A DNA stretch of 64,000 nt from Candidatus Omnitrophota bacterium (GCA_043805415.1 JAZDHZ010000014.1:10393-74392), one strand, 5' to 3'; counted from the stretch's first letter, positions 15,595 to 50,077 are shown. Notes: a model not told the origin generated them from the sequence alone. Numbers and translations: made by a program.

Positions 15595-15598
15595 GCTT

Positions 15599-24950: not shown

Positions 24951-25109
24951 TATTATTTATAAGATATATAAAGTAGTGCAAAATTATACCATCTAATTTC
25001 TTATCCTGCAAGGAGAAATGGTTTATTTTTCATATTAAGCTTAAACATTGAACCGGCTAAACAAGGAAAACTCAAAACCGCGGTATCCGAATCACAAACA
25101 GATAAACTT

Positions 25110-25289
25110 TTAGCGCGCTTCTTTTAAGGTTGGAAACTGCTCTATGTGGATTACTTTATAAGGCCTGTATGGACGTGATGCTTTTACTCTGCCACTATTA
25201 TGCTGCTGAAGCCGCTTCTCAACATCTTCTGCGACTCCAGTATAAGTTCGAGTTTCTGCTTCGTTTAAAAGAATATATAAATAATTCAT
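25110..25289 (-). CDS. GIY-YIG nuclease-domain protein, short (YhbQ-like), possibly C-terminally truncated
   Basis: From internal Met: MNYLYILLNEAETRTYTGVAEDVEKRLQQHNSG matches the GIY-YIG core (YxY...YxG...R..QH). The protein ends about 20-25 aa earlier than typical family members. Confidence 0.5.
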   Translation of the reverse strand: MNYLYILLNEAETRTYTGVAEDVEKRLQQHNSGRVKASRPYRPYKVIHIEQFPTLKEAR

Positions 25290-25375
25290 GTTATTAAAGC
25301 TGGCGGATCCGCCTCGCCGCTTTACGGAGGGCGAGATCTCGACATTTTTCGTTATGCGAAAAATGGCGGACCCGC

Positions 25376-25585
25376 TTGCAACCAATTCGCACCATTTCCG
25401 AGATCCCGGTCAAAATCATTATTGAACCAACTGAAACCATCCCTCTATATCAAAAATTAGCCCCAAAAATCACAGAATTACACCTATTAGGCATGTCCTT
25501 AAGAGCAATCTCCCAAAGCCTAGAAGTAAATCGAAGAACTGTCCTCAGAGCAATTCAATATTCAAGGAAAGGAGGCAAATTGTGA
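25376..25585 (+). pseudogene. Probable remnant of an IS-transposase/resolvase-type HTH domain
   Basis: 69-aa ORF containing LGMSLRAISQSLEVNRRTVLRAIQ, a typical N-terminal HTH of IS transposases; no catalytic domain follows. Confidence 0.25.
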
Positions 25586-25959
25586 ATGCCTTCAGGCTTT
25601 TCAAGCGCAATACTCAATACGCGATACTATTTTGTCTTTGTGACTTTTCCGTAAGAAAGAATTGGAGGTAAACATGTGGTTCAGTCTGCGCAGTATATTT
25701 TATCCAAAAAACCATTATATCTGGGTACAAGTTAGGATTATCCATGAAACAAACAAGGCGATTTTAGTAGAGAATTGCAGAAAGTTTTGGATTGCTAAAT
25801 CGCAGATAGTTAAGATACGGTTAAGGAGGGGGGTTTTTGAGATTTATGTTAAGGAAGATACACTTAGATAATTAAGTATTGTGTCCCTAGATTTCTCCAC
25901 CGGCAATCAAATGTTAAATCAAGCCTTCTTCCCTATATTTCGGCATCATATACAAAATT

Positions 25960-26667
25960 TCATCTACTTTTTTTAATTTTTGGCAAATCCCAAGCCGTTA
26001 TTATGCCAAGAAGTCCTTCATCTTTCTTACCGTTCTCAGTAATAAAAACAGCGCCTAATCTTCGTCCTTTTTCGATATAATCAAAGAACATTTCTTCGAT
26101 ATCATAGACATTTAAGTTTTTGCTAACAAAGCGGTATTCATTGTCTGCATCCTGTTGAATAAGCTCCTCTAACTCTCCAACTGTATTCTGCACTATGATA
26201 AATTCTTCTTCATCTTCTGGCACAAATGAAGCCACCCAGCAGGTAACCACCCTTTCTGAAAAAAGCCCTAAAAATTTGCCTTTTTTATAAACAGGCACGT
26301 GCGTATACAACTTCTCTTTCATTACTTTAATAACCGCACTTATTTTGACTGTAACCTCACAGGTATATACATTTTTTATGGCAATTGTTAAGACGGAAGG
26401 GGGTGAAACTAATCTAAGATATATGTCTTCAATCTTTTTGATTGCTTCCTCGGTTGGCACAATAAGAGGGACCCCATGGGATAATTTATTTCTTATATCC
26501 CCTAATTCTTTTAGCTCTTCTGCTTTTGCCCTAACCACCCTATTTTTTTTGCCTGCCGCTTCAACTACTTCATAAAACTTCATTCCCTTCATATTTGTCA
26601 ATCCCTGCAAATAATCCTCTACTTTCCCAAATATCTCTTTATATTTTTCGTTTAAATTTGAACTCAC
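25960..26667 (-). CDS. HEPN-like (R-x4-H, DUF4145-type) N-terminal domain fused to a CBS-domain pair
   Basis: Motif GDIRNKLSHG at residues about 57-66 (R-N-x3-H). Residues about 110-230 show two CBS-like units (HVPVYKKGKFLGLFS and LGIITAWDL). Confidence 0.5.
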   Translation of the reverse strand: MSSNLNEKYKEIFGKVEDYLQGLTNMKGMKFYEVVEAAGKKNRVVRAKAEELKELGDIRNKLSHGVPLIVPTEEAIKKIEDIYLRLVSPPSVLTIAIKNVYTCEVTVKISAVIKVMKEKLYTHVPVYKKGKFLGLFSERVVTCWVASFVPEDEEEFIIVQNTVGELEELIQQDADNEYRFVSKNLNVYDIEEMFFDYIEKGRRLGAVFITENGKKDEGLLGIITAWDLPKIKKSR

Positions 26668-26800
26668 CCTTTCCCCCCTTACCGTTTAATATAAATGCGA
26701 AAAACTCCTCGTTAATTTTTCCGCTCTTTGACTCTACATATCAATTAAACCTGCCCCTTTTTAATACTACAGGTCAAATTTTAAGCGCCAAGCTAGCCCA

Positions 26801-26950
26801 CTAACCATTTCCAATTGGATTCCAATTCTCCAATATCCCTACCACATAACTGTATTTTCTTTTCGGATTACCTATGTTCTTTTTAGCTATAACTGCAAAT
26901 GCCTCTTTGATTTTCCTTGAGCCATATTGTTTTGTTTTTTTTGCATGATT
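26801..26950 (-). pseudogene. DnaD-like (DDBH2 YxxxIxxxW) C-terminal gene fragment, copy A
   Basis: Minus-strand reading ...KQYGSRKIKEAFAVIAKKNIGNPKRKYSYVVGILENWNPIGNG-stop. No space for a full gene upstream. About 85-90 percent identical over about 115 bp to the copy at 32895-33020. Confidence 0.45.
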
Positions 26951-27113
26951 CAAACCTAATAATCTTTTTGCATGTTTGCATCAACGTCCCGTAATTCTCT
27001 AATTATTTCCTTTTAATTAAACTTTTTTAGCGATTTGCTTTCAAATTGCATCTGTATTATTAACAATACATTATGTCATTTGAAATTAAATTGGCCCTTA
27101 GTTTTCAGACAGG

Positions 27114-28523
27114 TCACGCCCAAATAGGAACATATTTAGCATATCTCCTGGAAACGTTATCAGGATCTTCAAATTTAATCATATTACGCGATAGAGCATC
27201 CTGAATTACGCGAGAAATAGCATCTGAATTTTTCTCTGACAAATTAAACCTTTCTCTCAAGCTTTTATTTGTCATTTTTTGATTCATAACATACTTCAAA
27301 CAACAATGCTGATAACACGCTCTCACCTTATCTTCTTTTGACATATCATTGAATTTTCTATGCGAAAAAAGAATTATTGATGTTCGGAGTTGTCCTACGC
27401 GAAAATCTGGTGCCGGTAACTGTAATAATTCTGCAGAATTAACAACTCTATCAATACCACTACCAAGCTCCTCGCAAATTCCTAATCGCCTCATTACATC
27501 AGCCAATTTTTCATTTCGAGACTTATATTCGTCTATGAAACGATCTGGGGTTATAACAGGTCTCCCGGGATTAGAGATCTCTATTCTGTCGGAATAAAGT
27601 TCAATCATCACTGAAGCTCCTTTTTCTTTAAAGTCTTGATGAATCAATGCATTTGCAAGTAACTCCCTAATAGCAATTTTAGGAAACATTTTTATTGTCT
27701 TACGGATTGCCTTTTCTATTACTTCATTTGTAGGTATTTGAGCATCAATAAAATCTACTAAATTCTGAAAGCCTACAGCGTAACCTTTAGCTCCTTGTTG
27801 AAATAGTTTTGTTTTATTTTTACCAGTATCCTCATAAACAACTAACCGTACCGCTTTACGCTCTAAACCAGAAAATTCTTTTAAATTTTTAGCAAATAAT
27901 ATCGCCCCCAAATTAGTAATGTCGTATACATCGCCATGTTTAACAATAAAACCTTCTCGAGAAAATTTATCCAGCACTCCCTCTCTATTTTCAGGATAAG
28001 GACGTCCCGATAAATCAAAGTAACTTTGTGTATCAAGCAATCGAATAATTTCTGGCGAATCAACATTTTCTTTTGCAATAAGACATAAAAACTCAGGACT
28101 TCCTTCTGCAAAAATTTTCTTTAGTTGTTCTGGTGACATCGGAGCTAAAGTATCACCTGCCCGCATAAGATATTTACCTTCATATTGAATAGGTTGCCCT
28201 TGAGGTCGTGAAGGCACGAAAAACACTAACACTCGACCATTTTCATGTGTTAATTCTTTATAGTCAACCTTAAAATGCAATCTTTCATATATTCCTGCTA
28301 CTGTTTTGGATGGTGTCTGAAAAGCCGCTGTCCCAACAACAATTCTAGGAAGGCTATCTGTGACTCCTAATACTATATGTCCGCCGCATTCGTTTGCCAA
28401 GGCAACACAATATTCAATAAGTTTGTCGAATTGAAAGCTACTTTTTGCTTCTTTAAATTCTAAATGTTCAGTTTCAGAAGGGGCTATCAGCCATCCGCTC
28501 AAGTCTTTCAAAGTAATATCCAT
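27114..28523 (-). CDS. AlbA_2 (Schlafen-like divergent AAA) + HATPase_c_4 domain protein
   Basis: N-terminal pattern EFKEAKSSFQFDKLIEYCVALANECGGHIVLGV typical of AlbA_2 'putative DNA-binding' domain; C-terminal region with HATPase-like motifs (NALIHQD, ISNPG). Confidence 0.65.
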   Translation of the reverse strand: MDITLKDLSGWLIAPSETEHLEFKEAKSSFQFDKLIEYCVALANECGGHIVLGVTDSLPRIVVGTAAFQTPSKTVAGIYERLHFKVDYKELTHENGRVLVFFVPSRPQGQPIQYEGKYLMRAGDTLAPMSPEQLKKIFAEGSPEFLCLIAKENVDSPEIIRLLDTQSYFDLSGRPYPENREGVLDKFSREGFIVKHGDVYDITNLGAILFAKNLKEFSGLERKAVRLVVYEDTGKNKTKLFQQGAKGYAVGFQNLVDFIDAQIPTNEVIEKAIRKTIKMFPKIAIRELLANALIHQDFKEKGASVMIELYSDRIEISNPGRPVITPDRFIDEYKSRNEKLADVMRRLGICEELGSGIDRVVNSAELLQLPAPDFRVGQLRTSIILFSHRKFNDMSKEDKVRACYQHCCLKYVMNQKMTNKSLRERFNLSEKNSDAISRVIQDALSRNMIKFEDPDNVSRRYAKYVPIWA

Positions 28524-28872
28524 TGTAATTCCTTCCTCTTTATCTATTATATTGTATCTTGTTTTTTACGCAATCTATACGTACGTTGCTTTAAACGAAA
28601 ATACTCCCGTCCCTTTTCTGTCTTTTGCCAGTTAAGCATGCGTTCTTTTTTCCGTTGATTAATTTCTTCTTCACTAAGTTCTTTCTTAAACTGTCCAGTC
28701 TACATATATCTTTTCATCTTACTATCCTCTTATGCTATATATTGTTATAATACTGCAAAAATTGTTACTACTCAATGGGTTTAAAATCTGGGGGATATAT
28801 ATACCAGGTGAATAATATTATTGGCGGGACAAAACCTAAAGGTGCTTTTTAAGGATTAAGCGGAATAGGTTT

Positions 28873-29679
28873 TTATATAAATCCGGGGAATTTTCGCTTA
28901 AATTCTTTTTTCATTAAATGAAAGGCTATATCTAATATTTCTTTTCTCTCTTTTCTTGCTTCAGCAACTATCTTAGATCTTAACTTCCCATGGCGAACTT
29001 CAGTCGCAACTTCTGTCAATGGCTTCATAAACGCTGTATTTGTTTTTAAAGCTACATGCATCTCACTCCAATGCTTTTCCTTAGTTATTCCTTTCTCTGA
29101 ATTTATAGCTTCTCTAATATCCTCAAGAATCCTGTAGGCAAAGAAGAACGCATTATCTCCTGGATCATTGATGCAATTGTAGTAATCTTTAAGCATTATT
29201 TTATGAAAAAAGCTCGAATTTATCACCGGGAAAAACTTTGCTACTTTCCGCCAAGTTACATTTGGTAAAGCATCTTTATTGGGCGTATACATTTTTCCGG
29301 CATAATCTAGCGTCCAAATTAAATTATGCTCAGCTTTTGTATTCATTGCCTCTATGCAACGGTTTACCGTAAACGAAAGTTTATTGTAATTATTCTCATA
29401 AACAATATTCTCTCTGAAAATAAAAGATGTGATGAGTGTATGAAAAGCTTCATAAACAAAAGGAGCAACTTTTACATATCCATCCTCTAAAGAAGGATTC
29501 CAAATAGAGATCCCATTGAAAAAGATGTCTAGTCTGTATCCGCCTCCTAAATCGAGTTCACCTGGATTAAATTTGTAGCAATAATCTGGAGGATTTAATG
29601 TCGCAGTAAAATAATATGTTTTATTTCCGGATATTTCCATGTTTTTATTGTACAACTCCTTACTTAATAACAATACCAT
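28873..29679 (-). CDS. Hypothetical protein (268 aa)
   Basis: Long ORF, no recognised motif; downstream of a small membrane protein gene on same strand. Confidence 0.4.
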   Translation of the reverse strand: MVLLLSKELYNKNMEISGNKTYYFTATLNPPDYCYKFNPGELDLGGGYRLDIFFNGISIWNPSLEDGYVKVAPFVYEAFHTLITSFIFRENIVYENNYNKLSFTVNRCIEAMNTKAEHNLIWTLDYAGKMYTPNKDALPNVTWRKVAKFFPVINSSFFHKIMLKDYYNCINDPGDNAFFFAYRILEDIREAINSEKGITKEKHWSEMHVALKTNTAFMKPLTEVATEVRHGKLRSKIVAEARKERKEILDIAFHLMKKEFKRKFPGFI

Positions 29680-29775
29680 AAAAACCGTTACTAAACAACG
29701 GATTCAAAAATCGGACTGGTTATAGAGGTAAGGTGGTTACCTTGCCGGGCAAGCGGTTATTTCTGTCCCCACACC

Positions 29776-30168
29776 CTATCCACATAAATTCATCATGAAG
29801 ATTGCAAATGCTATAATGTACGCAAGTAAGGTGACTGAATCAGCAACAACATCAATCCAAAACTTCTGTATTATTTCATTTGACCAAATATAACAACTTG
29901 TTGGCTGTAATTGTTCATCTGCTCTTCCAGCATAGACATTCCAGTGAACAATTTTATTTAAAAATGTCAATAGCACCTGAGTACTTATCGCAATCGCAAT
30001 TGCTCCAACAAATAATTGCTTATCTACTAAGCTGTTGAAAAACTCTTTCCCCCCTACAACTAACGCAAGGGCACCTATACCATAAGCAACAAACCAGTTT
30101 CTCAGTACTGAAGCATGTTTCCAATATTGATCAAAATACTCTTGAGCCGAACTATTATGATTCCCCAT
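29776..30168 (-). CDS. Hypothetical small membrane protein (130 aa, 3 TM)
   Basis: Hydrophobic segments VAYGIGALALVVGG, VGAIAIAISTQVLLTFL, LLAYIIAFAIFMM. Confidence 0.4.
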   Translation of the reverse strand: MGNHNSSAQEYFDQYWKHASVLRNWFVAYGIGALALVVGGKEFFNSLVDKQLFVGAIAIAISTQVLLTFLNKIVHWNVYAGRADEQLQPTSCYIWSNEIIQKFWIDVVADSVTLLAYIIAFAIFMMNLCG

Positions 30169-30418
30169 GATCTTGCTCCTTCTTAGATTGTGTGCGATTA
30201 AAGAACTAAAAAGCTAACGGCAGAGCTCGGCTTCGTCGTGCCCGCATCCTCGCTTTATATAGCTCGCGTGCTAACGCACTCAGAAAGCCAGAACAGCCGC
30301 AATGCCCAAAGACATTCGCCTTTGGCGAAAGACTTTCGTCCGCTTTCGCGGATTCGTATTGCTTGATAAACAGTAAAAGGTTATTAGAAACCAAACGGAA
30401 TAACCTCAAATTAATGGA

Positions 30419-31309
30419 TTACATAGTTCTATATACATCTTCTTCACACAACTTAAATTTCCCAAAGTAATCCAATAATCTTAAAAAATATTCCCTGAAT
30501 AAATTTTGACAAGAAACATATTTTTGAAATCTATCATCAAAGCTTAAACGAGATACCCCGGAGTGAATTATTTCGTTTCTTAAATCTATAATATCTGTTA
30601 ATGATGGATTCATCCCCACATTTCCAAACATTTCGGTAAGTAAGGTTTTAAAGCCTTTGTGCTGTGGCCTGCCACTTCGCCTTCTCATCATCGCCAACGT
30701 CGTTCCTGAAGGATAAAAATTATTATTAAAAATAGGATATCCGATATGACATGCATATGTATGCTTTAAATTTTCCAATAAAACAAACATAAACACAAGG
30801 CGAGCCTCTATAGGAAGATTTGGTTTTTGACTCAAAACATAATAATCTAAAATTACGTTCAATTGCCTGGATTGCCGCAACTTTCTATAATTAGGCCAAG
30901 CTTTTTCAAGATATAGCTTAGTTGCTTTTCCATGTATTTCTATAATTTTCCAAGATGTTTGGACAATTCCATTTCCAGATAGCCATTTTTCCTTTTCCCC
31001 ATAGATCTCTTTGTGACAATATACTTCTGAACAAGTAATAAACGATAAAAGCTCTGCGATATCACGAATTAAATCTCTTACAGTATCAACTTGAGACCTC
31101 GGAACATCTTTAATTGTAAGATCTGTTGTGAAATGTGTTTCTCCTTCAAAAATTTTTCCACGAGATGTACTATATCCTTCTTTTTGTCGCAATTCGACAA
31201 CAAAACCATCCAAATTAGCGGAAATAAAATTCTGAAAGTGCCAGCCCGGCCCTATTTTCTCAGTGCCAATTAAAAGACAATTCGCAAGAGTTCCAATGAA
31301 ATCTGTCAT
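30419..31309 (-). CDS. Hypothetical protein with C-terminal HEPN-like R-x4-H motif (DUF4145-type)
   Basis: Motif IIDLRNEIIHSG near the C-terminus; 43 bp downstream of the PD-(D/E)xK-like gene, probably co-transcribed. Confidence 0.45.
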   Translation of the reverse strand: MTDFIGTLANCLLIGTEKIGPGWHFQNFISANLDGFVVELRQKEGYSTSRGKIFEGETHFTTDLTIKDVPRSQVDTVRDLIRDIAELLSFITCSEVYCHKEIYGEKEKWLSGNGIVQTSWKIIEIHGKATKLYLEKAWPNYRKLRQSRQLNVILDYYVLSQKPNLPIEARLVFMFVLLENLKHTYACHIGYPIFNNNFYPSGTTLAMMRRRSGRPQHKGFKTLLTEMFGNVGMNPSLTDIIDLRNEIIHSGVSRLSFDDRFQKYVSCQNLFREYFLRLLDYFGKFKLCEEDVYRTM

Positions 31310-31352
31310 AACAACCCAATATTATATGCGTTGTAAAACCTAAAATTAGTAA

Positions 31353-32894
31353 TCAAAAATCCTCTGACAATGCTTTTCTTTCCATATCAAAACAGCGATA
31401 AACCACAGGGATTGAAAAATTCTCCCTAATATATTTCATGTAACTTTTTGTATCATCGTCAGGGAAAGAATCTCCAATAATAATTAGCTTTTTAGCCCTC
31501 TCAATATCTGGCCAATAAGCATACTCCATGATTTGTCCCAACGCTTGTCTTATGCAAAGTTTTGGCATCTCAGTTTTTATCTCGAAATAATGCCATTCGT
31601 TTTCAAGTGTCCTAGCCTTTATATCGATTCTCCCCTTTTCTTCTTGGACATTAACATACTCATGCTTATATTGTTCTCTTAGAAGCAAAGTAAGGGCATT
31701 TTGCATCTTGCTGTGATATGGATCGTATTCAACTTCTTTTTTAAATACAACTATTCTTTTTTTTTCACTTCTCTTCTTTCCCTCGTCTTCATCGTCAAAA
31801 CCTTCTTTCAGAAGAAAATTTGTCTTTTTAGGAATCAGCTTGAACCTGCTTGTTGTTATATTAATATCCTCATCTGAAATCTCAATCAACTCGTCAAATT
31901 GTTTCACGTTATCAAATCTAAATTTTATATTAAAAATTAATTCTGGAGAATTAAAATTTTCTTGAAAAAGAACGGGATTACCGCCAACATTTTTTATATC
32001 AGCAATTAGCTCTTCTATCCAGCCTTTTGTTTTATACATTTTATAGACTATAGTTGCTTCTTCGGAGGAAAGGCAACTAATTTCCTTTATGTCTCCAACA
32101 TAAAATCTCTTCTTTGCGCCGCTGATTGTATACAACGCAACATTATAAATATTACCCACATGTTTTCCTGATTCTACCCTGAAAGGCTCGAGAAATGCAT
32201 AATGAAATCCATCAAGAATACGAGACTTGTCTAAAAGCCATTCCTCATGCCCATATCCATATTGTGCCTCGTAAGAGTTTGAATCAGAACTCTTCCCTTT
32301 TGCTCCTGAAGGAAATTTCCACCCCTCTGTATTCCAGCAAATCCTTGCTACTTTATTAGTAGTCCCAAATTCCTGCTGCTCTTTTCTTAGTTGTATGATT
32401 TTTTCAACATATTTTTTATAAAAATGAGAATCAAGGAAAGCGATGCCTTTAGGTTTATATTCCTCAATCATAGAATCAATAACAGGCTTTACATTGTTTA
32501 AAAAATCTTTAAGGTTTGCTAAATAATGATTGCCGTCATAATTTCTATGCCACTTATTTTTATTACCCTGTTTTTGAAATCCACCAAGCCTTTCTGCAAC
32601 CTTACGCAAAAACTTTGCCTTCTCTTGAGAATCTTGACCTGATATTTCAATATAAGAATTACCTTTTTCATCAACTACAAATCCTATATTATGTATCTTC
32701 TCCTTCCAGTCTCCGCCATCCCAAAACGATACTTGCAAATATTTATCATTACCAATAAACCAATATCTTTCTTCGAATCGTTTCTTATTATTAATTTTTC
32801 TTGGAACAAAGAAAAAATTATTATCTTTTTCATGCAACTCGACTAGGAAGTCAAATATTTTTTCATGTTTTAAAACCGTGCTTCTACTGCCCAT
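31353..32894 (-). CDS. Hypothetical protein with C-terminal PD-(D/E)xK nuclease-like motif
   Basis: C-terminal GRIDIKART...WHYFEIKT fits the D...(D/E)xK restriction-endonuclease-fold pattern; N-terminal 350 aa unassigned. Confidence 0.45.
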   Translation of the reverse strand: MGSRSTVLKHEKIFDFLVELHEKDNNFFFVPRKINNKKRFEERYWFIGNDKYLQVSFWDGGDWKEKIHNIGFVVDEKGNSYIEISGQDSQEKAKFLRKVAERLGGFQKQGNKNKWHRNYDGNHYLANLKDFLNNVKPVIDSMIEEYKPKGIAFLDSHFYKKYVEKIIQLRKEQQEFGTTNKVARICWNTEGWKFPSGAKGKSSDSNSYEAQYGYGHEEWLLDKSRILDGFHYAFLEPFRVESGKHVGNIYNVALYTISGAKKRFYVGDIKEISCLSSEEATIVYKMYKTKGWIEELIADIKNVGGNPVLFQENFNSPELIFNIKFRFDNVKQFDELIEISDEDINITTSRFKLIPKKTNFLLKEGFDDEDEGKKRSEKKRIVVFKKEVEYDPYHSKMQNALTLLLREQYKHEYVNVQEEKGRIDIKARTLENEWHYFEIKTEMPKLCIRQALGQIMEYAYWPDIERAKKLIIIGDSFPDDDTKSYMKYIRENFSIPVVYRCFDMERKALSEDF

Positions 32895-33020
32895 ACAGGC
32901 CTACTTTCTCCAATATCCCCACCACATAACTATATTTCCGCTTCGGATTGTCTATGTTCTTTTTGGCTACGATCGCAAACGCGTCTTTGATTTTCTTTGG
33001 GCCGTATTGCTTAGACTTTT
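32895..33020 (-). pseudogene. DnaD-like C-terminal gene fragment, copy B
   Basis: Minus-strand reading ...KQYGPKKIKDAFAIVAKKNIDNPKRKYSYVVGILE...; a direct repeat of copy A about 6.1 kb away. Confidence 0.45.
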
Positions 33021-33236
33021 AAATAATATCCTCTATTATTTGCGGATTGTATTCTTCAAATACTATTTAAGCGTATTTTCTTGCTGTTTTATATTCCTTT
33101 TCTCCATATTGCTCCGCTATCATCGCAAGTTCAAGATCTAATTTTTCAGGATCATATGTTTTTAGTACCTTGTACATCTTCGGACTTCTTTTGCTGTAAT
33201 CCTTTTTTGTTTCTTTTCGCAAAAACATTTATATTT

Positions 33237-33566
33237 TTAAACCTTGAAACAGTGATATCCTTTTAAGGCGTCCAAAGCTGCGTAAGCCCAGGAACGATGT
33301 AGTTGCGAAGAATGTCCGTTTCCATCATTTAATCCGGCAATAGCCTCTACCGACCAAATCAGATTACCAAACTTTTCAGACATATAAGCATTCCCCATAT
33401 CTTCTTGTTTAGCTTTTTGCTTTAGATCTTCAGACAATGTTTTAATTTCAGTACAAATTCTATAATTATCACAAGAAGAATCATGCAACATACTACCAAC
33501 TAGGCACCTCATATGTTCCAGCGTGCTTTTTATATCCATACTATCCTCCTTATAGGATGTCTCCAT
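33237..33566 (-). CDS. Hypothetical protein (109 aa)
   Basis: ORF only. Confidence 0.3.
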   Translation of the reverse strand: METSYKEDSMDIKSTLEHMRCLVGSMLHDSSCDNYRICTEIKTLSEDLKQKAKQEDMGNAYMSEKFGNLIWSVEAIAGLNDGNGHSSQLHRSWAYAALDALKGYHCFKV

Positions 33567-33670
33567 TCTATATCCCGATTGTGATTATCTTTTTGATTAC
33601 CCCTAAATTTCTAATATTCCTACATCTTTAAACGTGTCGATCGTGCTTTCCAATCAGTGTAATCATTCTT

Positions 33671-40744: not shown

Positions 40745-40877
40745 ATTTTTCCTCTTTTAAAATGCGAGATAAGGAAGCGTTGCTTGATTAAACGATATTT
40801 ATTAATTTTTTCATAATACGTTTCTCTTTTCAATCAACGTCATTTTTTTCTCTCATTTAAATATCCCCCTCTTTAGC

Positions 40878-41390: not shown

Positions 41391-41684
41391 TCCCCCCCCT
41401 TGTTTTATATTATGCTTGAATTTTATCACAAAAACTTCCTTTTAATCCACTCTTTTGGATCAGGCCACCATCCCGAGAAATCAAAAAATCTATATACATC
41501 ATTCATTTTAAAATCTCCTTTATTTTCTCCAAACCACAACATTTATAATATCTTCAATTACACACAACATTCAATCCCACCTACTCCAGTTTCCATTTTT
41601 AAAAATATATTTTCCCTCTATCGAAGCAGACAGGCTGTCTATGCCTTCAAGGCTTTTATTCTTCTCAATAATCTTTAAATCTCA

Positions 41685-43949
41685 TCAGAGAATCCCTACA
41701 AATTCAGCTACAAAATGCAGCTTTAATGAAATGTCACCATCCTTCTGATCAAAAACTAATGGTGAGTATGATTTATTTTTGGGAAGAAGCTCAACTCGAA
41801 TGTTAAAACCATCTTCTCCCTTATGACTTTGATATCCCTTAATTGTATACGATCCCCCCGTATGTGGATCTGGTTCTCCCTGATATTGAAAAAGATAAAT
41901 TCCTCCTCTTTGTGAATATGGTCCTGCAGGATTAGCTTTAAAAATACAATAGTCACCATTTTTTATTCTTGGTTCCATAGAATCTCCAACTGCGCGGACA
42001 ACAAACATCGTCTCATCTAATCCCTTTCGATCGACAAAAACCCATCTATCTTCTTTTACTTCCATCCCATCAGCAAATTTACCGCAGGCAGCAGCTAAGG
42101 AATAAACTGGTAGATATTTACTAGAATCTTCACCCTCTGGAATAACATCACTGAAAAACAAATCAGAAACCAGTCTATTGCCATTAACTGGAGTATCTCG
42201 AATATTTGAAAGCCACTCGTTAGCAAGGCTATCAATTCTATTCTTCCACCTGGGTCCTCTCTCATGCCGATATTCCAAACATGAAATAATTAACTTTAAG
42301 AGTTCCTCTGGATGAAACGGGTTTTTTAAAAATTCCCTTAAAACATCACGAAGTTGCCCTATTGTGAGCGGAACGATATTAATTTCGACCTCTTCATCAT
42401 TTGAGGTGTACCAACAATCTCTTCGAAAAGTTTCCGCAGTATTACTATTAATATCAGGTGCAAGAAAAAGACCATAAACTTCTTTATCTGACTCTTTAAC
42501 TATATCTGCTACATGCCTTCTTACTGTCTCACCTTCAGCTGCTTCTTGTCGTGATGAACTTGTTAGAGTAACTTCAATTACTAAAACAAAATTATCAAAT
42601 TCAAAAATCATATCAGGACCACCTCCAGGAGCTGGATGACGAGGCAGCATATCTTCATCAATAAGAAACCGTCTTGTGTTATGTGCTGGCACAGCAATAT
42701 GGTCAATGGCTAAAAACGCCCTCCACACAATCCACTCCAAATAAGTTGGAGGGTCAACAATATGCTTCATGGCTTGTCGTCTCCCCGTAGCAAAAGCATC
42801 CAAATATTCTAAAATATCAGTAACCGAGTCCTCATGCGCTTGTTCTATTGCAAATTTTTCCTCTTCACTTTGAGCAAATAATTCAATTAACTTATACCTC
42901 TCTTTTTCTAATATTCTAACATCAGTCTCAACTGATAAATTCTCTGCACTTTTCGGAACAGCTTTTCCATCATCTGTTAATTGTGATGCCAACTTTCCAA
43001 TTTCATGCAAAGCAAAAGAAGGATTATCCATTGGCAAAGATGAACCTCGATAAAATTCTTTTAAATATTCCACCTTTCCTTCTTCATGTAAAATCCGCGG
43101 TTCTTCTTCGAGAATAGCTTTTATAATATCAAGTTTGTTTTCCCTTAAAACAATGGCGCCACCTCTAAAAGATAACAATCCGGTCATCCTACTATAACGA
43201 ACTGTAGTATCGGCATAATCACCTAAAGTCCCGAATTGCACCCCGCCCTCAAGCCCTTTAGCTTCTAATATAGCCCTATCAAATGCTTTTAAGTTATTCC
43301 TGCCACTCACTTCACTTCGCCTTTGTCTATATTCAAGAATCTCTTTAACTGTCCTCTCCACCTCAGCAACATCATGTTTTCTAAACAATTGCAAAAAAGC
43401 CGCCATCTCAATTTTTTTTAAACCGCTTTGTTCCCGCTCTCTTAATACAAACAATACTTGCAGCAAGAAAATAAATGGCTTCATTATTTCACCCTGAAAA
43501 CTTGATTCAATCTGTGACGGAATCTCAAGACACCGCAATTGTCTTAAAAAAACATCTGAAATTGCACCACTAGAATCGGCATTCACCAATAGCTTTCCTG
43601 CTGGGGTCAACTCATAAAGCTTCCCCGATAATCCTAGATCCTGACAAAGTTCCTTAAATGAATCCTGAAATCCTTTATTAAATTTATCGGTAACAAAACC
43701 CAGCTTCACAAAAACATTTCTCCATTTCCTTCCAAACCAGGACGGCTCACTTCCTGCAGTGCTTATGATGCCCTCATCATGCAATTTTCTTGTAAACGCC
43801 GCCTCTTGTTCTGCGCCATATACATTTCCCTGAAAATGTTTAGCGAACACAATAAGACCTTCTTGAATCCTATTTGGATTTCGAACAGTTGTATTTCCTA
43901 AATCCCAAACTCTTCTCGGCATAAAACTCCTAGTATGCAACAAATACAT
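41685..43949 (-). CDS. Candidate type IIS restriction endonuclease partner of the adjacent two-domain MTase, with C-terminal LexA/S24-like (GDSMEP) beta-barrel domain
   Basis: 754-aa ORF overlapping the MTase stop by 20 nt (operon). C-terminal about 110 aa contains VGDSMEPRIKNGDYCIF, the S24 peptidase-fold signature. The N-terminal 600 aa is unassigned; calling it an endonuclease is an inference from context. Confidence 0.4.
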   Translation of the reverse strand: MYLLHTRSFMPRRVWDLGNTTVRNPNRIQEGLIVFAKHFQGNVYGAEQEAAFTRKLHDEGIISTAGSEPSWFGRKWRNVFVKLGFVTDKFNKGFQDSFKELCQDLGLSGKLYELTPAGKLLVNADSSGAISDVFLRQLRCLEIPSQIESSFQGEIMKPFIFLLQVLFVLREREQSGLKKIEMAAFLQLFRKHDVAEVERTVKEILEYRQRRSEVSGRNNLKAFDRAILEAKGLEGGVQFGTLGDYADTTVRYSRMTGLLSFRGGAIVLRENKLDIIKAILEEEPRILHEEGKVEYLKEFYRGSSLPMDNPSFALHEIGKLASQLTDDGKAVPKSAENLSVETDVRILEKERYKLIELFAQSEEEKFAIEQAHEDSVTDILEYLDAFATGRRQAMKHIVDPPTYLEWIVWRAFLAIDHIAVPAHNTRRFLIDEDMLPRHPAPGGGPDMIFEFDNFVLVIEVTLTSSSRQEAAEGETVRRHVADIVKESDKEVYGLFLAPDINSNTAETFRRDCWYTSNDEEVEINIVPLTIGQLRDVLREFLKNPFHPEELLKLIISCLEYRHERGPRWKNRIDSLANEWLSNIRDTPVNGNRLVSDLFFSDVIPEGEDSSKYLPVYSLAAACGKFADGMEVKEDRWVFVDRKGLDETMFVVRAVGDSMEPRIKNGDYCIFKANPAGPYSQRGGIYLFQYQGEPDPHTGGSYTIKGYQSHKGEDGFNIRVELLPKNKSYSPLVFDQKDGDISLKLHFVAEFVGIL

Positions 43950-45875
43950 ATTCTAGAACTCTATTAGCATTATCTCCCACTTTATGCCCATGAGTTCCAA
44001 ATGAGTATAGATGTTCTACTTGATGAACAATAACTTCATCTTTATATTTTTTAAGCAAATTAATCATCTGACTCTTCGAGGGTATAGAATTTGATGAATA
44101 CGAAACAACTAAAATGCTATCTTGAAATTTTTGAAACAATGAATCAAAAGCTGAAAAAATAGTATCTTTTGAAGAAAATGGCGTATTGTATTTTTCAAAC
44201 TTTTTTGTCTTTGTATGAAGCTGTATTTTTAAACCTTCCCATTGTCGAGTTAGTCCCTCAATAAAATGATAGCGCCGAGTATAATCATTATCTGAACTCT
44301 TAGAGCAATATGGAGGGTCTATATATACCAAATCAGCCTTAACATCTAATTTGAATATATCACCAGTAAATGATTCATTTTTAAACCCATTATTAAATAC
44401 CGCGTGATTAAAGGCTTCGACATTTTCCAAAAAATGTTGCCTCAAATCAATCTTCATATCTCTTCTTCCATCATCATATTTATGACCAACATAAGTAAAA
44501 ATTCCGCGTGCTCTACGCTTCAAACAGGCTCTATTTAAAGCGGAAAGGGCTAATGCCCTCTTGTATTCATTACCAAGCTGCTCAATTCTACTTCTCATTG
44601 AATCTAAAAATTGATTTTCCTCATCACTAAAATATAACCCCTTAAATGTTGTTGATATAAACTTATTATTTTTGAGATTATATGACAACAATATCTCTAC
44701 ATCTTTTTTATCCAACACGACTTTAGAATTTTGAATTAAAGCTTTGGAAAGTTGACCACAAAAAGACATAAAATCATTACTAATAACTTTTTTCTTTTGC
44801 TGTTTAAACATATACGACACACAAGCGCTACCAGAAAAAGCATCAATAACTGTGTCAAAAGGAAGGTCTTTTACGCAATCCCAAATAAATGGTAAAACCC
44901 TATATTTGCTACCCATAAAACGTGTACCTGGAAATTTCTCTAATATTTGTTTTCCTTGCAAAGAAAAATAAGAAGGCGTCTTTTTCTGCGGCTTAGTTGC
45001 TATAACTATAAGATCTTGCCCTGTTCTCGTTGCTGCATTACAACTAATATTTCGTCGAGTTTTAACTGCCTTATATTGAAAATTATCATACAGCTTACGA
45101 ACAAACTCAGCATTTGAATTGGTCAAAAGAACATAAACGCCTCTACCGACTAATTCAGAAACTAAATCCCTTAATTCAATATGGTCTTCCTCATAAAATA
45201 ATTCTTTTGTGTACCGCTTAAAATCTGAAAAACCTCCAACGGGATAATAAGGTGGGTCAAAAAAGACAAAATCTCCTTCCTCTGCATGTTTTTTTACAAC
45301 ACTAACATAATTATCACAAATCAAATTTACACCCTGCAATGCACGGTGCGCATTAAGCAATTTAACTTCTTCGCAAATTGTTGGATTCTTACGACTTCCA
45401 AAAGGAACATTAAATTTACCTTCTTTATTAACCCGATACAAACCATTATAACAAGTCTTGTTTAAAAAAATAAATCTGGCAGCTCTTTTTACAACACTTA
45501 ATTTATTAGGATTTTGTTGTCGTACCTTATAATAGACCTCTTCGTCGTTCTTATATTTTTTCAATGCCCCTATAAGATTATCAAGATCATCCCTCAAAAC
45601 CTTATAGCAGTTAACCAACTCTTCATTGCTATCAGATAAAATAGCTTTGGCAGGTAACAAACTAAAAAACAAAGCCCCTCCCCCAGAAATGGCTCGAAAT
45701 ATCTCTTATAAGAAGCTGGAACATATTTTTCCAACTCAGGAATAAGCTGTGTTTTTCCTCCAGCCCATTTCAAAAAAGGCTGACCTTTAAACTTTCCTAA
45801 TTTTTTTACTATGTTGTCTTGAGAATTATTCTTCATATACAAATTATCTGCTTTCGTTAATTCCTCTAAACTCAA
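43930..45875 (-). CDS. DNA adenine N6-methyltransferase with two Dam-like (D12 class) domains; reading frame interrupted in a G-run (frameshift or sequencing error)
   Basis: Two DPPY motifs (YFFDPPYYP and YIDPPYCS). The N-terminal [11 protein letters not shown]...YFEPFLGEG lies in ORF 45594-45875 and continues in another frame as (GGGA)[25 protein letters not shown] in ORF 43930-45672. The break is at gggggagggg, 45676-45685. Confidence 0.7.
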
Positions 45876-46159
45876 TATGAAACTCGAAAAACATTACCCA
45901 AAATAATTTATTCTTAAGCTTTATAGTCAGAAAAGAACAACGTTGTTTAATTAATATTGCCCTAATCCATTTTTCTTTTTCAATCAACAGCCATCTTATC
46001 ACTTACTTAAACATCTCTCTTACGCATTTTCTCTGCTTCTTTATAAAATATCTTTAGTCCGTCAATTCCTCGACCCATTACATGGTGTGACAACATCCGG
46101 AATAATCTAATCGCGCTTGCATTGTTATTCTTTATTTCTACCATGTATTGTTTGCTCTA

Positions 46160-46465
46160 TTAACTAATCAATTTATCAAACAACGTCCCACTCTTCCGTC
46201 CTCGAGCGTCAGTTTGAGTCATATTACGAAATGTGCTAAATTTATCGAGGATGTTACGAGCAAGGTCAATCGCGCTAGTACCCTTGGTCCCAGTGCGCAG
46301 AAGAATGGCCAAAAGCTCTGACTTACTCAAAGTTCTTGCCCCATTCTTGAGCAATTTCTCTCTGGGCCGATCATCTACTGGCCAATTCTTTATAGCTTGC
46401 TTATTAACTTTACTAATCTTTTTTTCTTTTTTCATTTTTATTTCCATAGCGAAGATTCTTTCCAA
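46160..46465 (-). pseudogene. RadC N-terminal (HhH) fragment; JAB/MPN domain missing
   Basis: WPVDDRPREKLLKNGARTLSKSELLAILLRTGTKGTSAIDLARNIL matches the RadC N-terminus; the ORF stops after 101 aa. Confidence 0.6.
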
Positions 46466-47328
46466 TTATCCGAAAATCCCATACTCCAGCGAGAAATCTC
46501 TGGATATTCATCAAGCAAGCTGCAAAGCCGCGCTTTCCAATTGCTTTGCGGTGCAATAATTTTTAACAAATAATGAAAAATTGTCAAAACTCCAAAGATT
46601 CTATTTTGACTTATAGCAACAGGTTCATGCCACTGCGGATATTTTTTCTTTCTCGGGATATATGGTTTAACTCCCATCTCTCTATTCCAAAGACGGCTAT
46701 GGTGCGCACATATATTGCGAATAACATTTATCGTCTTAAGCCATGATGTCAAAATCTCGTCAGGAATACCATAATGATTTGCTATCTTTTGTTTAATCTG
46801 ATCAGAAACCCCTCTATACATTGTCAACGCACAGCCAAACGACATAATCTCACCAGCCATCCAAAGCGGTAAATACTCATGACAATCTCCATATTTAACT
46901 TTAAAATGATCAACAAATTTTTCTTTACTTCGAGCCACCTCATCGGTAATAGTTTTTATTAAGCGCTCATGTTCTTCGGAAGTTAGTTTTGGAAAATTAG
47001 CTTGATTGGTGTAACCAGATGCTCCGATAGTATGGGCAAGAGTATAAATTAATTGAGTTTTAATGGAGACTTCAAATCTCTCGATAGCATCCATAACAAT
47101 TAAACGCAGCCTACGGTCAAATGTATAATGACGCCACACCTTTTGAAATGTAATACCTGATTTAAAATTATCGTTGGACTTGCGATAGGGATAAAGATAA
47201 CCGCTTAATCTGTAATAATTGACATTCTTTAAGCAATCAATCAGTAAAGCCTTGTCAACAATAAGACCGCGTTTAATTAATAGATCTGCCTGCGCTTCTA
47301 AAGTTAATGGGGGCTTAGTGTATTTCAC
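46438..47328 (-). CDS. Abi_2-family abortive infection protein (AbiD/AbiF type)
   Basis: Family hallmarks: N-terminal LIKRGL, NYYRLSGY; C-terminal VIRNICAHHSRLWNRE (RNxxAHH). Confidence 0.8.
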   Translation of the reverse strand: MKYTKPPLTLEAQADLLIKRGLIVDKALLIDCLKNVNYYRLSGYLYPYRKSNDNFKSGITFQKVWRHYTFDRRLRLIVMDAIERFEVSIKTQLIYTLAHTIGASGYTNQANFPKLTSEEHERLIKTITDEVARSKEKFVDHFKVKYGDCHEYLPLWMAGEIMSFGCALTMYRGVSDQIKQKIANHYGIPDEILTSWLKTINVIRNICAHHSRLWNREMGVKPYIPRKKKYPQWHEPVAISQNRIFGVLTIFHYLLKIIAPQSNWKARLCSLLDEYPEISRWSMGFSDNWKESSLWK

Positions 47329-47528: not shown

Positions 47529-47747
47529 TTACTCCTCTAAAAAATTCCCCGCTGGTTTATTAAGAACCTTGGCGATCTTCATTAGTGTTTCAATTGACGG
47601 CATGGTTATTCCGGATTCATAGCGTGAAATGCTTTTTTGCTTAGCATCGATTTTTTCTGCCAGCTCGGTTTGAGTTAAATCTGATTCCACGCGAGCCAAT
47701 TTAATTTTCTTGCCCAATTTTTTCGCGTCCATTTTCCTCCTTGACAA
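47529..47747 (-). CDS. XRE-family helix-turn-helix transcriptional regulator
   Basis: LTQTELAEKIDAKQKSISRYESG classic HTH_3 pattern; sits directly upstream of the Abi_2 gene. Confidence 0.8.
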   Translation of the reverse strand: MSRRKMDAKKLGKKIKLARVESDLTQTELAEKIDAKQKSISRYESGITMPSIETLMKIAKVLNKPAGNFLEE

Positions 47748-47921
47748 AGTATACCTAGAGAGTATACTTTAATTGTATCACGATAAGAGGTTATCCAAAG
47801 GGTTTCGTCCCGAGGTAATGCCTCTTTTTTTTATCTCTTTTAATATTCCAATTTTATATTTTAACCCATTCATAAATAACATCTGCGAAGCAAATTTTCT
47901 TAAAAAAAATTAAAATAACAC

Positions 47922-47950
47922 TTGACATTATATACCTTTAAAGGTATAAT
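47922..47950 (+). promoter_or_regulatory. Consensus sigma70-type promoter (TTGACA-17-TATAAT)
   Basis: Exact TTGACA at 47922-47927, 17-nt spacer, exact TATAAT at 47945-47950; about 230 nt upstream of the serine recombinase start. Confidence 0.4.
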
Positions 47951-48184
47951 TTAGTCATAAATAGAATATATAGTTTTTAGCTTATAGTGACTAATATATA
48001 CCTGTTTGAGGATAAAATCAAGGGCTATGAATAAGACCTGCACACAATCAGCTTTAATCAGAGAACCTCTTGATGCTTGTTCTGTGCAAAAGCTGTTAGA
48101 TGTAATTGTCGCAATCTTAGCTGAAGAATACATTACGACTGTCCGCCAGAATCCGAAAATTTTTCTTTTAAAGGGGGAGGTAAA

Positions 48185-49909
48185 ATGAAAGCAGCAATAT
48201 ATACCCGATATTCCTCGGAAAATCAAAGCGAGAAAAGTATTGATGATCAGGTCAGAGTTTGCAAAAACTATTGCCAAGATCATGATATTATTGTTTGCGA
48301 TGAACATATTTATATTGATGAGGCTGTATCCGGCTCTTTGATCAACCGCCCGGGATTGCAGGCTTTGGAAAGAGCCGCGGAGAGCAAGGAATTTGGCGCG
48401 GTGATTGTCGATGATTTATCCCGATTATCGCGCAGTAATCATCAAATGCTGACCTTGGTTTTAAAATTTAATTATTATCAGGTTACTTTGATCTCAGTTT
48501 CCGACGGTATTGTTACCGACGATGAAAACTCCAAGCTGGGCATTCAGATGCGCGGACTGATTAATGAATTATATTTAGATGATCTGCGCAAAAGAACCTT
48601 GCGCGGTTTGGAAGGTCAGAAATTGCGCGGATTCAGCGGCGGTGAAAATGTTTATGGCTATCTCTCTCAGCCTGTAGGCGAACTAAGACTTAATAAACGC
48701 GGACAAGCAAAATATGAAGGCAGAGTTCATAAAATCAATCCTGATGAAGCGGAAATTGTGCGCAGAATATTTAAAGAATTTATTGCCGGCGATAGTATTC
48801 ATCGCATTGTCCATAGGCTGAATGAGGATAAAATCCCAACCAAAAAACGGCTGATCGGCGGCTGGAATATATCCACTGTGTCGAGAATTCTTAAACATGA
48901 GAAATATATTGGTATTTGGGACTGGAGAAAATATAAGAACGTTAGAGATCCGATGACCGGTAAGAAAAAGGTTATCCGCCGGCCGGATAAAGACCGCTTG
49001 CCGCTATTTCGCGAAGATTTGATGATTATTGATAAAGACTCTTGGGAAAAAGTTCAAGACAGACAAAGCAAACTTAAAGGCACCTGGCCGGTAAGCAAGG
49101 AAAGAAAAACTGCTTGCCAGCAAAAAAGCTATGTACACACCAGCCCCACGCATTTATTCTCAGGATTTATGCACTGCAAACTCTGCAACAGCGCGATTGT
49201 CCTGATCAGCGGCAAAGGTTCAGGGTATTATGGCTGTTATAATGCCAAACGTAAGACCTGCACGAATACCCTGCTGATTTCCCGCAATAAAATCGAAGCA
49301 AAAATCATTCTAGCACTTAAAGAAGAAATCCTGACTTCAGAAAAAATTGATTATGTCTATCAGCAAGTGGAAAAAGCTGCTGCCGCAGGGCTTAATCAAG
49401 TCCCAGAATTAGTTAAGAAAAAGAAAGCCCTGCAATCAAAGCTTGAGCAGGAAATCCAAAATTATCTTAATTTTATTAAACTGGGGAATATGTCTAAAAC
49501 AATATCTGAGGCATTAAACCAAGCGGAAAAACAAAGCGAAGAGTTAAATAAGGAAGTTAATTCCCTGGAATTTCAAAAAGCAAACAGTTTTAAAGCTCCG
49601 CCTAAGGAGTGGATTGATCATCGCTTGGATACTTTAAGAGATACGCTGAATAAGAATGCAGTTGCTTCCGGACTGGCAATTAAGGAATTGCTGGGACCAA
49701 TCAAGCTTGAGCCGATTTTAAGCAAAGACGCTGACTTTTACCAGCTTTTAAGCGATAGCGAAAAAGCATTTAAGCCATATTATGTAGTGCATACAAAAAT
49801 TCAAACCCTTGCGCTATTAGATGATGAGCACAAGGGTTCGAATTGGTTTCAATGGCGGAGAGGCTGGGATTCGAACCCAGGGACCCAGTTGCCCAGGTCA
49901 ACTGCTTAG
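48185..49909 (+). CDS. Large serine recombinase (resolvase N-terminal domain + recombinase + zinc ribbon); ORF tail overlaps tRNA-Ser
   Basis: AIYTRYSSENQ (catalytic Ser region), LSRLSR, recombinase-domain and Cys-rich zinc-ribbon (CKLC...CYNAKRKTC) regions. The last about 19 codons (WRRGWDSNPGTQLPRSTA) are the antisense reading of the tRNA. Confidence 0.85.
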   Translation: MKAAIYTRYSSENQSEKSIDDQVRVCKNYCQDHDIIVCDEHIYIDEAVSGSLINRPGLQALERAAESKEFGAVIVDDLSRLSRSNHQMLTLVLKFNYYQVTLISVSDGIVTDDENSKLGIQMRGLINELYLDDLRKRTLRGLEGQKLRGFSGGENVYGYLSQPVGELRLNKRGQAKYEGRVHKINPDEAEIVRRIFKEFIAGDSIHRIVHRLNEDKIPTKKRLIGGWNISTVSRILKHEKYIGIWDWRKYKNVRDPMTGKKKVIRRPDKDRLPLFREDLMIIDKDSWEKVQDRQSKLKGTWPVSKERKTACQQKSYVHTSPTHLFSGFMHCKLCNSAIVLISGKGSGYYGCYNAKRKTCTNTLLISRNKIEAKIILALKEEILTSEKIDYVYQQVEKAAAAGLNQVPELVKKKKALQSKLEQEIQNYLNFIKLGNMSKTISEALNQAEKQSEELNKEVNSLEFQKANSFKAPPKEWIDHRLDTLRDTLNKNAVASGLAIKELLGPIKLEPILSKDADFYQLLSDSEKAFKPYYVVHTKIQTLALLDDEHKGSNWFQWRRGWDSNPGTQLPRSTA

Positions 49910-49944
49910 CAGGCAGCTCCGTTCGGCCACTCTGGCACCTCTCC
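49853..49944 (-). tRNA. tRNA-Ser (anticodon GCT), long variable arm
   Basis: Minus strand GGAGAGG...anticodon loop CTGCTAA...long extra arm...T arm GGGTTCGAATCCCAG...CCTCTCC-G-CCA. Confidence 0.85.
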
Positions 49945-50077
49945 TAAATGAGTAAATTATTTATGGTGCTTTAACAACATAAATAATATTAACGAATTTA
50001 TCCCGAAGCTTAGAGGTAAATTTTCTTTGATAATTTACCGATGCTTAAGCAAGGGGACTTTCCTTTATAAAATTTTG

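Follow-up and report, generated by a model that had tools for sequence, protein, structure and literature searches.

The stretch of DNA considered here, called the window, comprises 64,000 nucleotides (nt) from a Candidatus Omnitrophota bacterium, and all coordinates are positions in that whole stretch. It carries an intact tRNA-Ser(GCT) gene with an encoded CCA end (49853-49944, minus strand; ARAGORN, and Rfam at 48.5 bits), one of the three tRNAs that an Rfam scan of the window returned, with nothing further. A gene for a large serine recombinase (LSR; 48185-49909, plus strand), 574 aa long in its integrated form, runs into this tRNA gene from the opposite strand, and divergent from it lies a regulator of the XRE family (47529-47747, minus strand; Pfam HTH_3, E 5e-17). 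The region that ends at this junction spans about 25,371-49,859 (24,489 bp) and is distinct in composition. Its GC content is 0.354, lower than that of the flanks (0.403 and 0.416), and the tetranucleotide distance to the core profile is 0.26-0.32 at 25-47.5 kb and 0.13-0.17 elsewhere, 14-25 kb included. In all probability, it is an integrative island with anti-phage defence cargo, placed by the LSR at the 3' end of the tRNA-Ser(GCT) gene, and its structural description (limits, attachment (att) sites and split recombinase gene) can be given with equally high confidence. A preliminary description had likewise proposed an accessory island at 25-50 kb, a claim upheld by unoccupied sites in relatives, both att sites, family members at tRNA-Ser genes and the composition just given.

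The LSR is made up of Resolvase (PF00239, E 4e-29, residues 3-149), Recombinase (PF07508, E 2e-23) and Zn_ribbon_recom (PF13408, E 5e-7) domains. The serine nucleophile motif, R-Y-S-S-E-N-Q at residues 8-14, is invariant in 34 relatives, and an AlphaFold2 (AF2) model of one relative, P0032, has long helices at 386-467, as in a coiled-coil insertion. Codons 1-556 are encoded by the element, and codons 557-574 with the stop are antisense to the tRNA-Ser, the first ~5 nt of that stretch being supplied by the element. As the preliminary description had stated, the open reading frame (ORF) runs antisense through the 3' half of the tRNA gene; the overlap amounts to its last 57 nt, and the stop codon TAG falls in the anticodon loop. 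That description also called the overlap a classical integrase signature, but it is a hallmark of tyrosine integrases and hence not classical for an LSR (PMC7192596). The overlap comes from the position of attP inside the recombinase ORF; a copy of the tRNA 3' half is not carried by the element, and only ~5-7 nt of the tRNA are replaced. Upstream of the LSR, a sigma-70-like promoter (TTGACA-17-TATAAT; 47922-47950, plus strand) agrees with the consensus at 12/12 positions, by pattern match only.

No clean left boundary had been visible earlier, and a search for a degenerate copy of the tRNA-Ser 3' end had been suggested. A copy of the 3'-terminal 30 nt of the tRNA is absent from the window (at ≤3 mismatches, and also by short-word BLAST), but a 7-9-nt copy is present at the far junction. 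Since the repeat of the tRNA end is this short, the boundary was reached through an inverted repeat instead, which places it at 25,364-25,393. The terminal inverted repeats of 18 nt lie at 49835-49852 (near) and 25376-25393 (far) and are alike at 16/18 positions; the 18-mer has 2 matches in the window at ≤3 mismatches, where 0.07 are expected, and this search of the window found no internal att site in the island. At the tRNA-side junction, attR (49835-49877) was delimited from the sequence, from comparison within the family and from published geometry (PMC3783163). It consists of the P arm GGTTCGAAT-TGGTTTCAA (49835-49852), the core TGGCG-GA (49853-49859) and the B' arm GAGGCTGGG-ATTCGAACC (49860-49877), the last being the acceptor stem and T-loop of the tRNA. 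At the far junction, attL (25364-25393), located by its 18-mer match, reads TGGCG-GA-CCCGC on the plus strand, followed by the inverted repeat TTGCAACCAATTCGCACC as P' arm; its core TGGCGGA, read on the other strand, gives TCCGCCA, the 3' end of the tRNA. On the tRNA strand, the far repeat is followed by GCGGG, by the 9-nt repeat of the tRNA end, TCCGCCATT, and by the host trailer, TTTTCG...CGAAAAATG-TCGAGATCTCGCC. The 9-nt TCCGCCATT, TCCGCCA(TT), is thus a direct repeat at both junctions, with the LSR adjoining the tRNA, and the outer edges of the junctions are the start of attL at 25,364 and the end of attR at 49,877. A first model, with crossover at the boundary of CCA and P arm, was dropped on account of inconsistent central dinucleotides and then of the shared TCCGCCA.

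When the ends of the window element are joined, the two repeats stand 12 nt apart and form a quasi-palindromic attP. The same layout is found intact in a metagenome contig, L123, as GGTTCGAATTGGTTGCAC-TGGCGGACGCAG-TTGCAATCAATTCGAACC. The reconstructed circular attP junction reads ...GGTTCGAATTGGTTTCAA-TGGCGGACCCGC-TTGCAACCAATTCGCACC..., and the restored attB reads tRNA...CCTCTCCGCCATTTTTCGCATAACG. In general form, attP consists of GGTKCGAAT, 14 nt, TC, 14 nt and ATTCGAACC. The 9-nt motif GGTTCGAAT lies 14 nt from the centre of attP on each side; the tRNA has it as its T-loop, at a distance of 9 nt from the same TC. The symmetry centre is the TC of TCCGCCA, at acceptor-stem positions 70-71, and these spacings put the motif at positions 16-24 of the attP half-site and 11-19 of the attB half-site. 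The same spacing is that of the zinc-ribbon-domain (ZD) motif in the model of A118-family integrases, which has been proposed to be general for LSRs (PMC3783163). Of the two attB halves, the tRNA half alone contains the motif, and the downstream half appears weakly specified. The LSR would accordingly read the T-loop-coding GGTTCGAAT in the tRNA as its docking motif, with a crossover placed by symmetry at or near TC. In the exchange, only the 5-7 nt at the tRNA end would give way to element sequence identical to them, so that the tRNA would survive. Behind the tRNA, the element also supplies a terminator-like hairpin: 18 bp with a U-run, 8 nt after the tRNA (49798-49844, minus strand; folding free energy -25.7 kcal/mol, z -6.8). 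It includes the P-arm motif and a third motif copy, and its sequence is kept in L001, L009, L029, L050 and L070.

The host side of the locus was read from relatives. Those of TadA place the window in a Candidatus Omnitrophota genome, although exact look-ups of TadA and the LSR had no match in the assembly collection. The order tRNA-Arg(ACG), TadA, tRNA-Ser(GCT) is kept in nearly all of the 80 genomes fetched, and the DNA 3' of the tRNA-Ser in relatives includes at least one of the following: a small GIY-YIG gene, a Na/Ca exchanger, dnaX, recR and tRNA-Asn. The window has counterparts of these neighbours at 25.1-25.4 kb (GIY-YIG) and at 9.5-14 kb (the remainder). In many relatives the synteny tRNA-Arg, TadA, tRNA-Ser, (GIY-YIG), dnaX, recR is unoccupied. 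Homologues of the GIY-YIG gene follow tRNA-Ser or TadA in L008, L012, L017, L019, L035, L055, L071 and L079. Because the GIY-YIG gene is a neighbour of tRNA-Ser in relatives, it belongs to the host flank and is not the island remnant for which its ORF (25110-25385) had been taken. The flank at 25110-25363 (minus strand), which comprises the native tRNA-Ser trailer and this small, C-terminally truncated gene, lies outside the element by alignment with unoccupied sites. The comparison with empty sites that the preliminary description had proposed could be made, as the far flank of the window aligns with the tRNA-Ser trailers of the unoccupied L079, L055 and L006. L131 and the unoccupied tRNA-Ser of L035 form another pair of filled and empty sites: the far flank of the former agrees with the trailer of the latter at 70/84 positions, the agreement starting exactly at TCCGCCA. 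For several contigs, the 3' end of tRNA-Ser is the exact point at which the contig breaks off, which fits a hot spot that may vary between strains.

Two observations concern the DNA on this side of the boundary. Short palindromes, GCGAGAYCTCGCC and GGCGGRTCCGCC, are conserved between tRNA-Ser and the small GIY-YIG gene (window 25300-25375, and the trailers of L079, L055 and L006), and palindromes of this interval are shared across distant Omnitrophota. Further out, at 14031-25100, lie six genes, for a TamB-like protein, CorA, PNPOx, an inverse-autotransporter-like protein, a 602-aa protein without assignment and a TreT-like glycosyltransferase. The 14-25 kb DNA was considered as part of the island and rejected, given its host-like composition and the att site and GIY-YIG flank at 25.1-25.4 kb. 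It is not present between tRNA-Ser and the Na/Ca exchanger-dnaX-recR block in L002 and L004, where the six genes are missing from that position. A rearrangement or an old insertion may account for it, and the GIY-YIG gene is truncated on that side.

The far repeat opens an ORF of 69 codons (25376-25585, plus strand) that is in frame with the LSR across attP. It had been listed as a helix-turn-helix (HTH) remnant of an insertion sequence, but it is a detached part of the recombinase gene, its 3' exon, and codes for an extension that is probably three-helical and HTH-like. The extension, of ~65-70 aa, recurs in conserved form in 8 elements. L123 has it joined to the LSR in one ORF of 625 aa, and contiguous forms are represented by the proteins P0032 (625 aa) and P0109 (671 aa). 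The dN/dS of the extension, 0.14-0.40, with the repeat codons excluded, indicates purifying selection. Among the 120 best matches to a reconstituted query of 629 aa, these two proteins alone cover the extension; the other 118 cover ~89-94% of the query, and nine homologues inspected have variable tails that are largely antisense tRNA, such as WRRGWDSNP. In P0109, residues ~570-610 hold two tandem att-encoded peptides (GSNWYHWRT ... DSNWYQWRTR), which would imply a duplicated att site within the ORF.

The element could be as described and the ORF at 25376-25585 nevertheless be a small gene in its own right, such as one for a regulator or a directionality factor, translated from a TTG in the repeat, so that continuity of frame would have no functional meaning. 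The ORF does begin with TTG, the extension is absent from most LSR proteins in databases, and LSR cores that lack it retain all catalytic and DNA-binding domains. This TTG, however, is part of the conserved repeat, the DNA upstream of it is unrelated host sequence at each locus, and no other start codon precedes the exon helices or occurs in the extension. The 12-nt spacing keeps the frame at every far end shown, and two contiguous ORFs of LSR and extension are independent of each other. We consider such a separate gene improbable.

With attP inside the recombinase ORF, integration moves a C-terminal extension of ~70 codons to the other junction, 24.5 kb off, and in its place the integrated gene reads 18 codons antisense into the tRNA, ending in the anticodon loop. 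The full-length protein of 629 aa would come only from the excised form, and the composition of the recombinase, with probably its activity or direction, would therefore depend on the integration state. Such a state-dependent C-terminus could serve as a built-in bias or lock on directionality. That the gene split is a functional switch is a tentative suggestion, somewhat short of probable.

The family to which this element belongs was defined by at least 80 metagenome loci with an LSR 60-84% identical to that of the window. At every locus with a close relative, TTGAWACCAATTCGAACC directly follows the tRNA. The 18-nt repeat, which encodes G-S-N-W-x-x, adjoins an opposite-strand tRNA 3' end in 44 cases: tRNA-Ser(gct) in 25, Ser(tga) and Ser(cga) in 7 each, Ser(gga) in 4 and tRNA-Asp(gtc) in 1. 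The serine recombinase had been named as the integrase of the island, an assignment strengthened by this adjacency of the same family to tRNA-Ser genes in dozens of contigs. Both repeats lie on one contig in L114, L121, L131 and L118, giving sizes of 6.1, 7.8, 9.1 and 11 kb, and L148, whose far repeat has >3 mismatches, is a fifth complete element of ~7.8 kb. The far-end core is exactly TCCGCCA in L114, L121, L131 and L163, and TCCCCGA in L118; the L163 contig holds only part of the recombinase and does not include the near end. The layout of the far end (repeat, 5 nt, core, host DNA) is constant in five elements. The common backbone consists of the LSR, the divergent XRE gene, the exon and a 69-aa ORF adjoining the exon. 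The window XRE is 71-88% identical to the XRE beside the LSR in 58/80 metagenome loci, and occurs in genome loci as well. The 69-aa ORF (25662-25871, plus strand) was found by tblastn at 6 loci, directly after the exon in each one listed, and has no Pfam match; as a speculation, it might be an accessory or directionality factor. The cargo varies among elements and is defence-like: an AAA_16-TPR protein in L114; a NACHT-like ATPase, a D12 methyltransferase (MTase) and a DndB/DpdB-like protein in L121; PDC-S60 in L148; and HerA with a PglX-like MTase in L118. LSR relatives were absent from the viral collection IMG/VR, in which nine exact matches to the P-arm 18-mer lay inside phage genes and were set aside as chance.

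Several other loci among these relatives carry traces of related structures. Beside tRNA-Ser in L025 (10532-10620) and L028 (10547-10635), a P arm, ~25 nt, a P' arm and TCCGCCA occur with no recombinase, and this ~80-bp structure is either a 'solo att' mini-element or a deletion scar. Its tRNA-side core lacks CCA and its distal core has it, which fits a crossover 5' of CCA; L024 keeps the P arm alone. In L033 (1268-1965) and L054 (3275-4799), and at a similar junction in L066, a distant clade of serine recombinases (21-26% identity) extends into the 3' half of tRNA-Ser(gct), through a junction of different sequence. As this clade also enters tRNA-Ser, the habit may predate the family studied. 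L002 has a gene resembling serine recombinases (24% identity; 16283-17722) next to its tRNA-Asn(gtt). Near the tRNA-Asn of the window (9487-9617 region), an inverted copy of the T-loop motif of that tRNA, GGTTCGAGT, stands 62 nt away at 9487-9495 and may be the scar of a similar element. One family member, in L169 (418-514), is at tRNA-Asp(gtc) with the repeat adjoining the tRNA, and in another, L151, the LSR match ends at 1190 by a tRNA-Glu(ttc) at 1157-1232, an adjacency seen from position only, no repeat being found there. These two loci suggest occasional retargeting through the shared T-loop and CCA end. Finally, L003 (1001-3440) has an XRE gene (88% identical) and an Abi_2 gene after tRNA-Ser but no recombinase, with a 19-nt repeat of the tRNA 3' end at 1330-1348, and may be a decayed or differently built relative.

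The interior of the window element is cargo on the minus strand. Nearest the XRE regulator is AbiD/Abi_2 (46438-47328; PADLOC AbiD, E 5e-78), then an N-terminal fragment of RadC (46160-46465) and a type II restriction-modification (R-M) pair (41685-45875). The latter comprises a double D12 MTase (43930-45875; PADLOC MTase, E 4e-215) and an AlwI-like restriction endonuclease (REase) fused to an S24 peptidase-like domain (41685-43949; PADLOC type II REase, E 4e-91). The MTase is split by the loss of 1 nt in a G5 run (45680-45684) within its FxGxG motif, where G6 would restore FEPFLGGGALFF; the partner endonuclease ORF is intact, and the break may stem from an assembly error, from decay to a pseudogene or from phase variation. 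The C-terminal S24 (LexA-like) domain of the REase (Pfam E 9e-8, residues 620-735) is an unusual fusion that could link restriction activity to self-cleavage. There follow a YfbU-domain protein (40878-41429; Pfam E 4.5e-35), an XRE pseudogene (40561-40753; by tblastn, 71% identical to the intact XRE over residues 30-71 and 85% over residues 3-15), and a 1000-aa protein with Metallophos and STAND NTPase regions (37514-40516; PADLOC candidate PDC-S60, E 4e-62), the homologue of the L148 cargo. A second, short RadC-like remnant (37295-37390; 74% identity over 68 nt with 46130-46197) precedes a distal block of several ORFs, some of them without assigned function in ORF scans (25960-37039). This block includes a 513-aa protein with a PtuA-N-like N-terminus (31353-32894), an AlbA_2/HATPase_c_4 protein (27114-28523) and three proteins with Rx4H motifs (35885-37039; 30419-31309; and 25960-26667, the last also with CBS), as well as a repeated pair of remnants (26804-26953 and 32908-33018; 81% aa identity).

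Domain scans agree with what the preliminary description said of the Abi_2 gene with its XRE regulator, the R-M pair, YfbU, the 1000-aa protein and the AlbA_2/HATPase protein, and tblastn agrees with it on the XRE remnant. PADLOC, which it had proposed to run, matched AbiD, the type II REase and MTase, and PDC-S60; several recognised defence systems, putative in function, are thus clustered in the island. The remaining cargo ORFs gave motif-level or partial matches only. The three proteins described as having HEPN motifs do possess Rx4H motifs, but their Pfam HEPN matches are sub-threshold only. Two remnants labelled DnaD-like are real repeats, but match no Pfam family, and the label is unsupported. 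Of two RadC remnants, the N-terminal fragment was found as described and the other extends over only ~70 nt.

Pfam scans of the ORFs found no phage structural, conjugation or replication genes. Classic targets of tyrosine integrases are tRNA 3' ends (PMC7192596), and the island might on that ground have been built by a tyrosine integrase, prophage or conjugative element, with the LSR as incidental cargo. The scanned ORFs, however, are free of domains of tyrosine integrases, capsids, terminases, relaxases and type IV secretion, IMG/VR holds no relatives of the LSR, and the delimiting repeats lie within the LSR gene and in frame with it; this origin is scarcely credible. The window element is the largest of the set, at 2-4 times the size of the other complete members (6-11 kb). 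Its second XRE (the pseudogene), second RadC-like remnant and duplicated remnant suggest that at least two family elements were fused and the internal integrase lost, which would be the most economical reading of the interior.

Taken as a whole, the locus may represent a bacterial LSR family that uses as its ZD motif the T-loop DNA universally conserved among tRNA genes, carries attP in its own gene and has a C-terminal DNA-binding extension in the excised state only, the structure of the integrase itself being a directionality switch. We put this forward as a serious possibility rather than a probable one. To the same limited degree, the family can be seen as the serine-recombinase, bacterial counterpart of the archaeal 'suicidal' integrases, which would explain elements of 6-11 kb spreading defence in Omnitrophota. 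Against the main account, that of a defence island integrated by an LSR whose gene is split, stand a number of points. The extension has weak matches to transposase-type HTH, with Pfam E 1e-4 (below threshold) and E 0.013 for a PDB profile. An alignment-based AF2 model of P0032 gives it three helices at a predicted local distance difference test score of 61-77, and a single-sequence AF2 model of the exon is one long helix and uninformative. The conserved TTG at the opening of the exon makes separate translation possible in principle, and the exon of L121 has a stop codon. At the DNA level, only 3/9 motif positions are kept in the B arm of attB as reconstructed, and the exact crossover dinucleotide is deduced from symmetry rather than observed. 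No recombination directionality factor was identified, and no transfer or replication genes that would move the element between cells were found by the Pfam scans. The fusion of elements rests on remnants, the island having yielded neither an internal att site nor a trace of a second LSR. For this strain, neither an excised circle nor an unoccupied site is on record, and the closest relative has only 84% TadA identity, on a contig of 3.7 kb.

Several of these features would also fit a fixed, immobile relic, in which recombinase and att sites are still recognisable and excision has been lost: pseudogenes and remnants lie inside the island, its size far exceeds that of the other complete members, and neither attP nor an empty site of this strain was seen. 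Yet the LSR ORF and the exon are undamaged, as are both att sites, and L091 and L092 have near repeats of functional appearance with exactly the sequence of the far repeat variant, GGTGCGAATTGGTTGCAA. The purifying selection seen on the exon throughout the family implies that its members pass through the excised form. A relic is thus unlikely, though less so than a separate small gene.

Among known systems, tRNA genes are the usual targets of the SSV-type integrases of archaea. The closest bacterial parallel we take to be IntP/IntX of Mx8, in which the C-terminus of the integrase is altered by integration. Tycheposons usually carry replication modules; none was seen in the window element in Pfam scans of its ORFs. 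In a survey of integrases, t(m)RNA sites accounted for 4.9% of serine and 44.5% of tyrosine integrases, and tRNA use by serine integrases was described in 2020 as previously unreported and in need of proof (PMC7192596). An atlas of LSRs from 2022 does not mention tRNA (PMC10083194). Self-splitting recombinases, with attP in their own gene, are known only among archaeal tyrosine recombinases according to a review (PMC8371274). Neither T-loop docking nor loss of the end of the own gene was found described for LSRs in the literature searched.

The phage-type LSRs (A118/LI, Bxb1, phiC31) are alike in having Resolvase, Recombinase and a zinc ribbon with a coiled-coil insertion, and in a quasi-palindromic attP with a 9-bp distal motif at 16-24 in attP and 11-19 in attB (PMC3783163). 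By contrast, the element described here targets a tRNA gene, not a protein-coding one, and has the T-loop sequence as its distal motif; its attP is inside the integrase ORF, so that the C-terminus of the protein is changed by integration, and the integrase has an extra C-terminal extension of three helices. The small serine recombinase of phiRSM, from filamentous phages of Ralstonia, also integrates at the 3' end of tRNA-Ser, in reverse orientation, and its att core TGGCGGAGAGGGT opens with the same TGGCGGA (PMC3816273). It is, however, of resolvase/invertase size and lacks the Recombinase and zinc-ribbon domains that the protein described here, of 574 or 629 aa, possesses; moreover, its attP lies between ORFs, and it belongs to a phage rather than a defence island. 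The SSV-type 'suicidal' tyrosine integrases share an attP within the integrase ORF and the partition of the gene on integration (PMC8371274). Here, the enzyme is of the serine superfamily and bacterial, and only a C-terminal extension is detached (after ~556), leaving the catalytic and core DNA-binding domains intact. Tycheposons are likewise small cargo elements at tRNA genes, in which repeated integration and decay build islands, and the history of fusion and remnants in the window resembles this accretion model for tRNA-anchored islands (bioRxiv 10.1101/2020.12.28.424599). Unlike the present element, in which an LSR duplicates only 7-9 nt, they use tyrosine recombinases and leave partial tRNA copies.

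Serine integrases are major tools of genome engineering, and their natural targets have been catalogued almost wholly as protein-coding genes. In the family described here, attP, attB, attL and attR can be read from sequence alone in a large and well-sampled set, with a geometry in exact agreement with the structural model. The T-loop being implicated as recognition motif, target sites are predicted in essentially every genome. A C-terminal domain present only in the excised state would, if true, be a natural and testable mechanism of directionality control. For the Omnitrophota themselves, a poorly known and uncultivated phylum, the family shows the movement of defence systems.

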